Shown: one piece after another, positions 4,224 through 28,222 of the stretch
Numbering within the stretch: position 1 is the stretch's first letter
How the letters are laid out: each line of letters opens with the position of its first letter
DNA from: a virus
Taxonomy: Duplodnaviria > Heunggongvirae > Uroviricota > Caudoviricetes
Reading direction: 5' to 3' (one strand)
IMG/VR virus record: IMGVR_UViG_2609459819_000001
Span: 1-42,054 of that record
DNA length: 42,054 bases
Translations under genes and position numbers: made by a program
Notes under the pieces: generated by a model
Seen by the model: only the letters and a program-made list of their open reading frames with translations
What the model was told of the DNA's origin: nothing
The model's database searches: none

Positions 4224-4247
4224 AAAAAAACCAGCCGAAGCTGGTTT
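4224..4247 (-). terminator. Hairpin with T7 run on minus strand (ACCAGC-ttcg-GCTGGT then TTTTTTT)
   Basis: Stem 4230-4235/4240-4245; lies 12 nt upstream of the V-like start, so probably a cargo-gene terminator read through in the late transcript. Confidence 0.4.
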
Positions 4248-4434
4248 GGTATCAATTATCTCTTAGTAACTAAGCTACATCAGTGTGAAGTAAGGCTTTT
4301 CCGCTGCAATGGCACACATTCACAAGGTGTATTAGGATATGTTTGCAACAAGTAAGCATTGAAAATCAATTTCAGCCATGAAGCCGCCATAGAGTGGACC
4401 TGCACCATCGCATTATTGACTACAGGAGTAACAA

Positions 4435-4725
4435 ATGGGATTTAGATTTCGTAAAAGAATCCGGATTGCGCCCGGACTCGCGATCAACATTAGTAAAAGC
4501 GGAGTAAGCACTTCAATTGGTGGTAAAGGTTCCACCATTAACATCGGGAAAAAAGGCGTAAAGATGACAAATGGCCTTCCCGGCACGGGGCTGTCGCATA
4601 CCACTAACCTTTACTCTCCCGGGAAATCGACAGAAAAAAAACAACTTACTCATAAGCAAAAAATAATTAGAAACATCCTGTTCGTAATTATTGTGTTTAT
4701 TATAATTAAAGCTCAATATTTTTGA
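4435..4725 (+). CDS. DUF4236-like small protein with C-terminal TM helix
   Basis: 96-aa ORF on opposite strand to tail genes; N-terminus MGFRFRKRIRIAPGLAINISKSGVSTSIGGKG recalled as the DUF4236 signature; AGGAG 7 nt upstream; AT-rich. Confidence 0.5.
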   Translation: MGFRFRKRIRIAPGLAINISKSGVSTSIGGKGSTINIGKKGVKMTNGLPGTGLSHTTNLYSPGKSTEKKQLTHKQKIIRNILFVIIVFIIIKAQYF

Positions 4726-4730
4726 CGCAT

Positions 4731-4760
4731 GCCCGCCTATCTGGCGGGCTATTTTACTTT
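4731..4760 (+). terminator. Intrinsic terminator after the DUF4236-like gene
   Basis: GCCCGCC-tatct-GGCGGGC stem (4731-4749) followed by TATTTTACTTTT. Confidence 0.5.
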
Positions 4761-23887: not shown

Positions 23888-23979
23888 GAGTTATAGATAA
23901 GTGCATGCTCTAGCAGCAAATCACTGTATTTGATATCGTTAAATCGCCAAAAATAACCCTATCAAACATGGAGAATTAT

Positions 23980-24129
23980 ATGAGTGAATCAAACAAACCA
24001 TCTGGAGAAAATAAGCCTCAACCCGCACCACAGCCTAAACCGGCTCCACAGCCAGCCGAAAGAAATCTGAGGACAGGTTATACCTTTGTTGCCGATTCTG
24101 CTGAAAACATCAGAAAAAAAGGTAAGTAA
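23980..24129 (+). CDS. 49-aa Pro-rich small ORF (MSESNKPSGENKPQPAPQPKPAPQPAERNL...)
   Basis: Manually translated; GGAGA 5 nt upstream of ATG; convergent with and overlapping 20 nt of the 189-aa membrane protein gene. Confidence 0.2.
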   Translation: MSESNKPSGENKPQPAPQPKPAPQPAERNLRTGYTFVADSAENIRKKGK

Positions 24130-24679
24130 GTACTGAGATTACAAGTGCACAAACAGGGGTGAGGATTGTAGCGATCCTTACCCTTTCTAGTTCTCGGCCT
24201 ATTCTGGCATTCTCTTTTTTACTCATTTCAGCCATTCTGGTTAAATCCGCAAGCCGGTAGCGCCGCAAGACGTTCAATGTTGAACGCTTTCCTGAAAATC
24301 CTTTCGACTCAAAACCAGTGTAATCATCTTCAGTAAACCCTTTATAGTCATCATGGTAAAGCGCATAGGGTGTCGATGACACGAGAGCTCGTGACCTTAC
24401 AACGAGGACGCAGCGAACAAGATAAGCCGCACACATTGCCCAGTAGACTAAAAAAACAGACATTCCAGCGGTGAGGTAATCAAAACCTGTACGTTGCGTT
24501 AATAACAAAAATGACGAGCCCACGCCAGCAATGAGTATACTCAATAACTTCTGGCCATTTTCTTTGTTTAGTGCGTTGGACTGGTGAATTTCGCGTATAC
24601 AATCCTCGCCCTGCTTCTCCAGAAAAGCAACGAGTTCGTCGTCCGCATCCAAAAAGTAATCATCGGGTAGATTATTCAT
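24110..24679 (-). CDS. Membrane protein of unknown function (cargo gene between Q and lysis genes)
   Basis: 189-aa ORF; acidic N-terminal region, about three hydrophobic TM segments; bracketed by two minus-strand terminators. Confidence 0.45.
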   Translation of the reverse strand: MNNLPDDYFLDADDELVAFLEKQGEDCIREIHQSNALNKENGQKLLSILIAGVGSSFLLLTQRTGFDYLTAGMSVFLVYWAMCAAYLVRCVLVVRSRALVSSTPYALYHDDYKGFTEDDYTGFESKGFSGKRSTLNVLRRYRLADLTRMAEMSKKENARIGRELERVRIATILTPVCALVISVLTYLFF

Positions 24680-24756: not shown

Positions 24757-24784
24757 AAAAAACCCCACGGTGTTATCCGCAGGG
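24757..24784 (-). terminator. tR'-like intrinsic terminator downstream of Q
   Basis: RNA stem CCCUGCGG/CCGUGGGG (with G-U pairs) followed by U6, about 100 nt downstream of Q stop. Confidence 0.5.
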
Positions 24785-24818
24785 CTTGAAACGAAGGCAT
24801 TAACCCATCGTTGGGACA

Positions 24819-24846
24819 AAATTAACACAGATTCGGGAAAAGTAAA
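24819..24846 (-). promoter_or_regulatory. pR'-like late promoter candidate
   Basis: TTTACT-16 nt-TAATTT with TGT extended -10, between Q stop and the tR'-like terminator; predicts a short 6S-like transcript. Confidence 0.3.
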
Positions 24847-24883: not shown

Positions 24884-25666
24884 TTACCGCGTTATCTGCT
24901 TAAGCTGTTTTTCGGCCCAGGACTCTTCGATATCAAATTTCGTGATCAGCAGGTCGTAGAATGGCTTAACAGACTTTTTCCAGGTGTCCAGGCTAATGGC
25001 GTCAGTAATCTGGCATACAGCAGCATAGGCTTCAGTCGACGGAAGTCGTTCATACCCACGCCCTCCGCAGCGCTTACAGTCAGCCAGAACAGGAACGCCC
25101 TGTTTCTCAGTAAGAGCCTGGTTCACTGCCTTGCCGCGCCCATGGCAATCACTGCAAGAAGCACTAACCACACCAGAGCCATTACACTTTTTGCATAGCA
25201 CTTTGATGGATTCTTTGACCTTCACCATCCCGGACACGGTCATTTTCCCTTCTGGCTTACGGAATTTATTGGTAAACACGTCAGCCTCAATGAAGCCCTG
25301 ACCGTCACAACAATCGCACTGCTTCACGCTGGCAGCGCTGCGGGAATAGTCCTCAAAAGCGAAGGTGGCCAACTGGTGCATCACCTGAGGTTTAACCGCG
25401 GCACCGAGCTTACGCAGTGCGGCAACCTTGTCGCATTTTGTCATCGCGTACTCAGCCAGCAGACCGATCGCCCGATCCCGGTCGTTATTGCTTATGCCCA
25501 TCTTGCCGAGGAAGGCGCTGTAACCCATTGCGGCGCGTTCCTGCGTCATGCCCATGGCAGCCATTATGTCGGTACCGGTCAGTGAATCGGAGGCGGTAGC
25601 GCGCGGAGAATCGCTAATCAGTGTGGATTTAGCGAAGTGGTATTTCACTGTGTTTTCAAGGTTCAT
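24884..25666 (-). CDS. Q: Late-gene antiterminator Q (lambda Q family)
   Basis: N-terminal SDSPRATASDSLTGTDIMAAMGM and C-terminal TWKKSVKPFYDLL closely resemble lambda Q as recalled; multiple CxxC zinc motifs. Confidence 0.85.
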   Translation of the reverse strand: MNLENTVKYHFAKSTLISDSPRATASDSLTGTDIMAAMGMTQERAAMGYSAFLGKMGISNNDRDRAIGLLAEYAMTKCDKVAALRKLGAAVKPQVMHQLATFAFEDYSRSAASVKQCDCCDGQGFIEADVFTNKFRKPEGKMTVSGMVKVKESIKVLCKKCNGSGVVSASCSDCHGRGKAVNQALTEKQGVPVLADCKRCGGRGYERLPSTEAYAAVCQITDAISLDTWKKSVKPFYDLLITKFDIEESWAEKQLKQITR

Positions 25667-27990: not shown

Positions 27991-28018
27991 AAAAAAAAAA
28001 AAACCCGCCGTAGCGGGT
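27991..28018 (-). terminator. Strong intrinsic terminator (minus strand)
   Basis: ACCCGC-tacg-GCGGGT stem followed by a 12-13 nt T run on the minus strand. Confidence 0.6.
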
Positions 28019-28222
28019 TGAATTAGCAATGTTTTATTAAGCCGCTATTTGTTTCTGCTGACAAAGCTCTGGCAAATTTGCACGCACCAGTGCTTCAGCA
28101 AACATCGCTGGCTCCGCCGTGAAATCGCGGGATTCTGTTTTGTATCTGCTAATTATGAACCAGCAGAAACTTTACTAAGATATGAAAATTAGCCTGCTTA
28201 AACAGCCTTTATGAAAGGTTAG

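Follow-up and report, generated by a model that had tools for sequence, protein, structure and literature searches.

The window analysed here, a stretch of 42,054 nucleotides, is an E. coli prophage that is found in identical form in strain AR_0119 and others, with the full region present in about 10 of 5,426 complete genomes. The genes around its late switch are all encoded on the minus strand (the strand of all features below unless stated otherwise), beginning with a Q antiterminator gene (25666-24884), followed by an ORF of 189 codons (ORF189; 24679-24110) and a lysis cassette (23745-22477) composed of a holin (23745-23359), a second holin (23372-23091) and a GH19 endolysin (23091-22477), with Pfam matches to PF16931, PF05449 and PF00182 across it. 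Beyond the endolysin lie the spanin, terminase and structural genes, all on the same strand. In the E. coli prophage copies PGAP leaves the interval from Q to the following ORF without annotation, and it is within this interval that the promoter, pause element and terminator described below are located.

The 260-residue product of the Q gene (stop codon at 24884-24886) is a member of the Q-lambda family, matching PF03589 with E = 2e-45, phrog_127 with E = 6e-104, and the PDB structures of lambda Q with E = 1.6e-50 (7UBM/7UBN) and E = 2.9e-33 (4MO1). PF03589 is the only Pfam family above threshold, and both PF06530 (Q21) and PF06323 (Q82) are absent from the Pfam scan of this protein. Alignment with lambda Q gives two colinear blocks (residues 1-113 and 168-260) with 48% amino acid identity outside an insertion, and the two genes are 57% identical at the DNA level. 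The 53-residue insertion (residues 114-167, window 25166-25327) falls exactly at the junction of the body and the zinc-ribbon arm, and it bears two additional CxxCxGxG motifs, which brings the total to four, the number present in the DnaJ cysteine-rich domain; this explains why the DnaJ central domain is matched below threshold (the sub-threshold Pfam matches being DnaJ_CXXCXGXG and BSD2_CRD). The two proteins have in common the torus-forming N-terminal segment, residues G39, L202 and T206, and the arm-tip T-E..G motif, while lambda Q residues V6, C53, H56 and L58 are T, L, M and I, respectively, in the window's Q. In lambda Q the N-terminal segment refolds together with NusA into a nozzle in the RNA exit channel, and the arm-tip motif contacts sigma region 4 (PMC9388147). 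Further upstream, a strong intrinsic terminator on the early-right strand (28002-28019; AACCCGCTACGGCGGGTT followed by T10) precedes the nin-like genes and Q, and its position, which is that of the lambda tR2-type terminators, suggests by analogy that expression of Q needs an early antitermination step.

The stop codon of Q is separated by 37 nt from a -35 hexamer, TTTACT (24846-24841; -34 to -29), which is followed by a 16 nt spacer, TTTCCCGAATCTGTGT (24840-24825), and a -10 hexamer, TAATTT (24824-24819; -12 to -7). The last four bases of the spacer include a TG dinucleotide (24827-24826; -15 and -14), so that the -10 region reads TGtTAATTT (24827-24819), an extended -10 element. These elements form part of a conserved block extending from -38 to -7 (24850-24819) that begins with GCTA, and which was delimited by alignment to lambda pR' and by conservation among relatives. 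TGTCCC (24818-24813; -6 to -1) completes the interval to the predicted transcription start, A24812, to which the mapped start of lambda pR' aligns. The spacer is also the expected place of the QBE, which in Q cassettes sits between the -35 and -10 elements (PMC6606751); given its near-invariance in the family we assume that Q binds there. At -7 to -2 the sequence TTGTCC (24819-24814) occupies the place of the -35-like TTGACT of lambda, an element that docks sigma region 4 during Q loading and is needed by lambda Q (PMC6606751, PMC9388147). The window's version matches TTGACA at four of six positions, and the number ranges from one to four of six across 66 relatives.

As a promoter this sequence is not conspicuous. 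Its hexamers match consensus at four of six (-35) and three of six (-10) positions, seven of twelve in all, and a strict sigma-70 scan of the window did not call the pR'-like promoter at 24846-24819. A relaxed pattern (TGnTAnnnT with a -35 matching at four or more of six positions) occurs 10 times in the window where 6.4 ± 2.5 are expected, which is chance frequency. Because pattern matching performs at chance level, the significance of the promoter rests on homology and conservation. On these grounds we predict that the -35, TG and -10 elements behind Q constitute a sigma-70 promoter, the spacing of which is fixed among relatives; the presence of the extended -10 TG within the invariant block fits with a -10 hexamer that is weaker than that of lambda.

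The first fourteen bases from the predicted start, AACGATGGGTTAAT (24812-24799; +1 to +14), are the same as those of lambda pR' at 14 of 14 positions, and they include a putative sigma-dependent pause element (SDPE; 24812-24804) consisting of a -10-like AACGAT at +1 to +6 and a discriminator-like GGG at +7 to +9. The corresponding lambda element, with its -10-like AACGAT, discriminator-like GGG and a pause at +16, was defined experimentally (PMC4005639, PMC5001585), and the predicted pause site in the window is at +16/+17 (24797/24796). The window contains two copies of the 9-mer AACGATGGG. Comparison with the lambda reference (43800-45600), in which pR' consists of TTGACT, a 17 nt spacer and TAAATT with a start at 44587 and a transcript beginning AACGATGGGTTAATTCG, gives ungapped identities of 29/36 from -12 to +24 and 20/24 from +1 to +24, dropping to 9/27 from -40 to -13 and to 10/36 from +25 to +60. 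This base-for-base alignment together with the pause element shows that the unit is homologous to lambda pR', beyond having a similar layout.

Downstream of the pause element is a tR'-like intrinsic terminator (24787-24757) with a stem at 24787-24760 (+26 to +53; 11 pairs, six of them G-C), a 6 nt loop, ATAACA, and a run of six T residues at 24762-24757 (+51 to +56), 51-56 nt from the predicted start. Initiation at 24812 and release within the T-run would generate a transcript of about 53-56 nt (24812-24757) comprising a 5′ hairpin (+1 to +23), the terminator hairpin and a U-tract. A 61 nt RNA starting at 24812 has a minimum free energy of -23.9 kcal/mol (z = -3.27 relative to shuffled sequences). 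The leader of the window type (+10 to +56) is about 90% identical among 20 aligned variants out of 34 unique ones, and 98.7% of the cells in its two hairpins are paired in these variants. None of the 20 has compensatory changes in either the 5′ hairpin or the terminator stem; this is uninformative rather than negative because the leader module is about 90% identical, and support for the terminator comes from replacement of the module, as described below, and not from covariation. Rfam gives no match at the gathering threshold across the whole window, and relaxing to E values of up to 10 around the site returns only chance-level matches, the best being RF02425 (E = 2.2), with isrJ at E = 6.6.

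The original prediction, made from the sequence without database searches, was of a unit at 24757-24846 that mirrors lambda pR'-qut-tR', with an extended -10 promoter-like element and a terminator about 55 nt downstream, lying right after Q and yielding a short 6S-like RNA. The interval it gave has the last T of the T-run at one end and the first -35 base at the other, and the TG at 24827-24826 with TAATTT at 24824-24819, the 51-56 nt from start to T-run and the 11-pair hairpin with its T6 agree with it, as does the position of the unit 37 nt past the stop codon of a Pfam-supported Q gene; the mirroring of lambda is upheld by the 29/36 identity over -12 to +24, AACGAT plus GGG at +1 to +9 and the intrinsic terminator at +26 to +56. 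The description of the RNA as 6S-like stands as regards its position only, since past +24 there is no similarity to the lambda 6S RNA.

In order to judge which parts of this unit are maintained we drew on Q-protein scans, which yielded 27 genome loci and 80 IMG/VR loci. The hosts of the genome loci include Kluyvera, Enterobacter, Siccibacter, Pseudescherichia, Silvania, Leclercia and Klebsiella, with more distant loci in Providencia and Moellerella in which the Q proteins are 33-40% identical. Of 68 unique sequences following Q, 66 have the most frequent promoter spacing, and their consensus reads GCTATTTACTTTTCCcGAAtCTGTGTTAATTT over -38 to -7, then six variable bases, then AACGATGGG, after which the sequences are variable. 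The mean majority-base frequency is 0.977 over -38 to -7 and 0.99 over +1 to +9, compared with 0.72 (-45 to -39), 0.65 (-6 to -1), 0.66 (+10 to +24) and 0.63 (+25 to +60) in the flanking segments, and the -35, TG and -10 elements are each at least 90% conserved. The last 90 nt of the Q gene serve as a yardstick, with majority frequencies of 0.70 at third codon positions and 0.96-0.97 at first and second positions; by this measure, constraint on the promoter, spacer and pause element is no weaker than on the codon positions that determine amino acids. In Providencia and Moellerella the more distant loci have the same layout of -35 and -10, with AATAAT or AAGAAT plus GG at +1 to +8 and a terminator at about +63 to +66.

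The sequences beyond +9 behave differently from the promoter block, in that at least five unrelated leaders are present among the 68 unique sequences. A hairpin and T-run nonetheless end at +53 to +71 in 64 of the 68 and at about +128 in two others, the remainder being one with a leader like that of lambda 6S and one without a terminator within 180 nt. As judged from these alignments the terminator is kept as an element of the architecture, the sequence of which is replaceable. What follows the terminator is also variable, with 24 different sequences after +65 behind the unit of Q, promoter and pause element, which shows that the unit goes with Q rather than with whichever gene is downstream.

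The spacer, too, comes in more than one form. About 40 nt before the pause element three Providencia/Moellerella loci (L026, L029 and L030) contain CATAAAATTGG (CATAAACTTAG in L030), in register with AATAAAATTGGG in lambda, whereas a Providencia stuartii locus (L025) contains TCCGGAACTG, which is like CCCGAATCTG or CCGGAAACTG of the window's family. There appear to be two types of spacer, and thus of putative QBE, in the Q-lambda family, and comparison of L025 with the other three indicates that spacer type does not track the long-arm insertion.

Several of the loci are mosaic. Phage Louie (L004, 1436-1600) has a lambda Q and a lambda promoter up to GGGTTAAT, after which it continues with a leader and terminator of the window/HK225 type; the reverse arrangement, a Q and promoter of the window type followed by a leader resembling that of lambda 6S, is found at L036 (3283-3480). 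In both the junction is at the pause element, and it seems from these two loci that the invariant AACGATGGGTTAAT is a recombination joint. We considered that the leader might be swapped generally among Q types and rejected this, as the window-type leader lies behind a window-type promoter in all 77 of the further IMG/VR loci, and Louie is a rare recombinant. At two other loci (L007 and L059, +24 to +128 after the Q stop region) there is a leader about 72 nt longer which ends in a window-type terminator and starts with TCGTTGAAGTGGTGAGGAAATAAG, resembling TCGTTGTGGTAGTGAGATGAAAAG of lambda; the 55 nt leader may be a deletion derivative of such a longer lambda-like leader.

A further folded element follows the Q stop codon ahead of the promoter, namely a hairpin at 24872-24846 followed by TTACTTTTCC, the 3′ arm of which (GGGCTAT) extends into the -35 hexamer. 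In 32 unique relatives 85% of its cells are paired, compared with 33-41% when the partners are slid, its covariation score exceeds those of 500 of 500 shuffles, and four pairs are altered on both sides. Loci of the HK225 type have a different and shorter hairpin at this position. The window's hairpin may be a 3′ structure of the Q transcript, either a weak terminator or a stabiliser.

The first gene past the tR'-like terminator, ORF189, encodes a 189-residue membrane protein (phrog_11870, E = 6e-84) in a moron-like position. Together with a convergent 53-codon gene on the plus strand (ORF53, 23968-24129; phrog_14506), the 3′ end of which overlaps its own, it makes up a two-gene insertion (23968-24679) between tR' and the holin. 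Neither product has a match in Pfam, PADLOC or NCBIfam, the PHROG families of both are of unassigned function, tblastn returns only hypothetical or membrane proteins, and the annotation of E. coli AR_0119 calls ORF189 hypothetical. This slot contains other cargo in mEp237, HK225 and Louie.

A second intrinsic terminator is situated before the holin (23887-23858), with an 8-pair stem, seven of the pairs G-C, at 23887-23868 (GCCCCGGCACCCGCTGGGGC), followed by TTTTTTATTT, and a predicted fold of -17.5 kcal/mol (z = -2.6). Another strong one, AAACCAGCTTCGGCTGGTTT then TTTTATGG, is at 4247-4228; with a plus-strand terminator at 4731-4749 it flanks a 96-codon plus-strand ORF (4435-4725) in the tail-gene region, and 4228-4749 looks like either a further moron or the place where the late operon ends. 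The proposal that additional terminators interrupt the late operon thus finds support at one or two sites (23887-23868 and 4247-4228) and not in the other candidates, which are weak and intragenic, the total count of terminator-like structures being no higher than in shuffled sequences. From 24750 down to 12368 there is no consensus-like sigma-70 promoter on the late strand, which, with the lysis and virion genes all on that strand, fits a single Q-dependent late operon. Dependence of the late genes on read-through by Q would be the natural reading of this arrangement.

Considering these observations together, we propose with a probability of roughly 85% that the unit switches on the late genes of a lambdoid prophage of E. 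coli, as a Q-lambda-type cassette comprising Q, pR', QBE, SDPE, tR' and the late operon. The most substantial of the alternatives concerns the product and not the position of the unit: the transcript of about 55 nt from pR' to tR' could be a prophage sRNA, made constitutively in lysogens and acting in trans, either in addition to its role in cis or as the role for which it is selected. There is a precedent in StxS, an Hfq-binding by-product of a pR'-tR' unit, and in lysogens the 6S RNA of lambda, like its analogues, is abundant (PMC7547250); moreover the window-type leader, 90% identical across 20 variants with two hairpins 98.7% paired, also occurs in Louie, where the Q and promoter preceding it are genuine lambda ones. 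An RNA that is nearly all base-paired would have scant single-stranded sequence to act as a seed, however, and it has neither compensatory changes nor a match in Rfam. Selection for an RNA sequence also sits uneasily with at least four unrelated leaders that replace the window-type one behind the same Q and promoter, and in the 77 of 77 further loci the leader is simply linked to promoter type. We therefore regard an sRNA function of this kind as unlikely. The more specific proposal that the transcript is a constitutive trans-acting sRNA that is a far shorter counterpart of StxS, and the related one that a long-arm Q loads through a larger site without the -35-like element, we consider doubtful.

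Much less probable is that the hairpin and T-run merely terminate the early transcript containing Q, with hexamers that occur by chance and late genes that are driven from elsewhere. The weakness of the hexamers, the chance-level frequency of the pattern and the location of the terminator some 100-130 nt past the Q stop codon would all be expected if this were so, but it leaves unexplained the 14/14 identity to the lambda initial transcribed region, the high conservation of -38 to -7 and +1 to +9 beside variable flanks, and the absence of any other promoter-like site ahead of the late genes; furthermore, the 3′ end of the Q message is more plausibly supplied by the hairpin at 24872-24846 than by the tR'-like terminator. 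The least probable of the readings we weighed is that the promoter and leader are a private attenuator of the moron ORF189 and not a switch for the late operon. ORF189 is indeed the first gene downstream, and is bracketed by the terminators at 24787-24757 and 23887-23858, but the unit travels with Q, most of its 24 downstream contexts are without ORF189, and homology with mEp237 and HK225 stops right past the terminator.

The late-switch reading leads to a straightforward model for how the unit would operate. Host sigma-70 RNA polymerase would initiate constitutively at A24812, the weak TTTACT/TAATTT pair being aided by the extended -10 TG. Sigma region 2 would then rebind the non-template AACGAT plus GGG at +1 to +9, and the scrunched polymerase would pause near +16/+17. 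Without Q the polymerase would escape and transcribe the hairpin at +26 to +53, with release of an RNA of about 55 nt at the U-tract (+53 to +56). When Q has been supplied by the early operon upstream, it would bind the spacer and dock on the paused complex, and the conserved N-terminus of Q together with NusA would form a nozzle in the RNA-exit channel. Polymerase so modified would pass tR', the 23887 terminator and later ones, and transcribe ORF189, the lysis genes and about 20 kb of morphogenesis genes.

Read in this way, the sequence describes a previously unannotated yet orthodox Q-lambda late switch which leaves the textbook model unchanged, the variations on it being minor: the leader is very short, the spacer differs from that of lambda and comes with an extended -10, Q has a long arm, and there is a slot for morons after tR'. 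The late promoter, start, pause element and tR' can now be placed, as predictions, to the base in the window and in more than 100 relatives from the Enterobacteriaceae. These make a natural comparison set for loading of Q-lambda proteins, in which an invariant pause element is combined with a variable -35-like element and two apparent types of spacer, and the terminators, though interchangeable, are at a fixed short distance. The slot directly past tR' is a site for cargo (moron) genes, which would turn on with Q.

The closest described relatives are the coliphages mEp237 (JQ182730) and HK225 (JQ086371), which by megablast share Q and the switch region at 83-91% DNA identity, the similarity ending just past the terminator. 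From Q and the promoter block through the pause element to the terminator, their parts are orthologous to those of the window, and the HK225 record includes a 'rho-independent terminator' at the site homologous to 24787-24757, while in both records the promoter and pause element are unannotated. The differences are found after the stem, where there is T6 in the window and CTTTT in HK225 and mEp237, and beyond the terminator, where HK225 has an opposite-strand ORF, mEp237 an ORF of 213 codons and the window ORF189.

Lambda is similar in having pR' directly after a Q gene of PF03589, an identical +1 to +14 segment, a similar -10 (TAAATT; TAATTT in the window) and an intrinsic terminator ahead of the lysis genes. 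By definition a Q cassette consists of a Q gene, PR', a sigma-dependent pause element, a terminator and late genes (PMC9388147). Lambda differs from the window in a spacer that is of other sequence and 17 rather than 16 nt; the window has in addition the extended -10 TG, a degenerate -35-like element, and a Q with a 53-residue insertion carrying two extra zinc-knuckle motifs. The terminators are also differently placed, at +56 in the window and with the T-run ending about 194 nt downstream of the start in lambda, giving an RNA of about 55 nt as opposed to the 194 nt 6S RNA.

The Shiga-toxin phages offer a parallel in the position of cargo, since a moron follows directly after tR' in both, stx in those phages and ORF189 in the window. 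Their StxS RNA, a 258 nt molecule that RNase E cuts down to 74 nt and that binds Hfq (PMC7547250), has in common with the window's RNA only the type of origin, from a constitutive late promoter to tR'; the latter is predicted to be compact and about 55 nt long. The cassettes of Q21 (PF06530) and Q82 (PF06323) follow the same logic of promoter, QBE, sigma-dependent pause, terminator and late genes (PMC6606751, PMC9388147), but with proteins of a fold unrelated to that of the Q-lambda type, a QBE that is a direct repeat in the case of Q21, and pause elements that sit elsewhere, with a 9 bp offset in phage 82 (PMC5001585).
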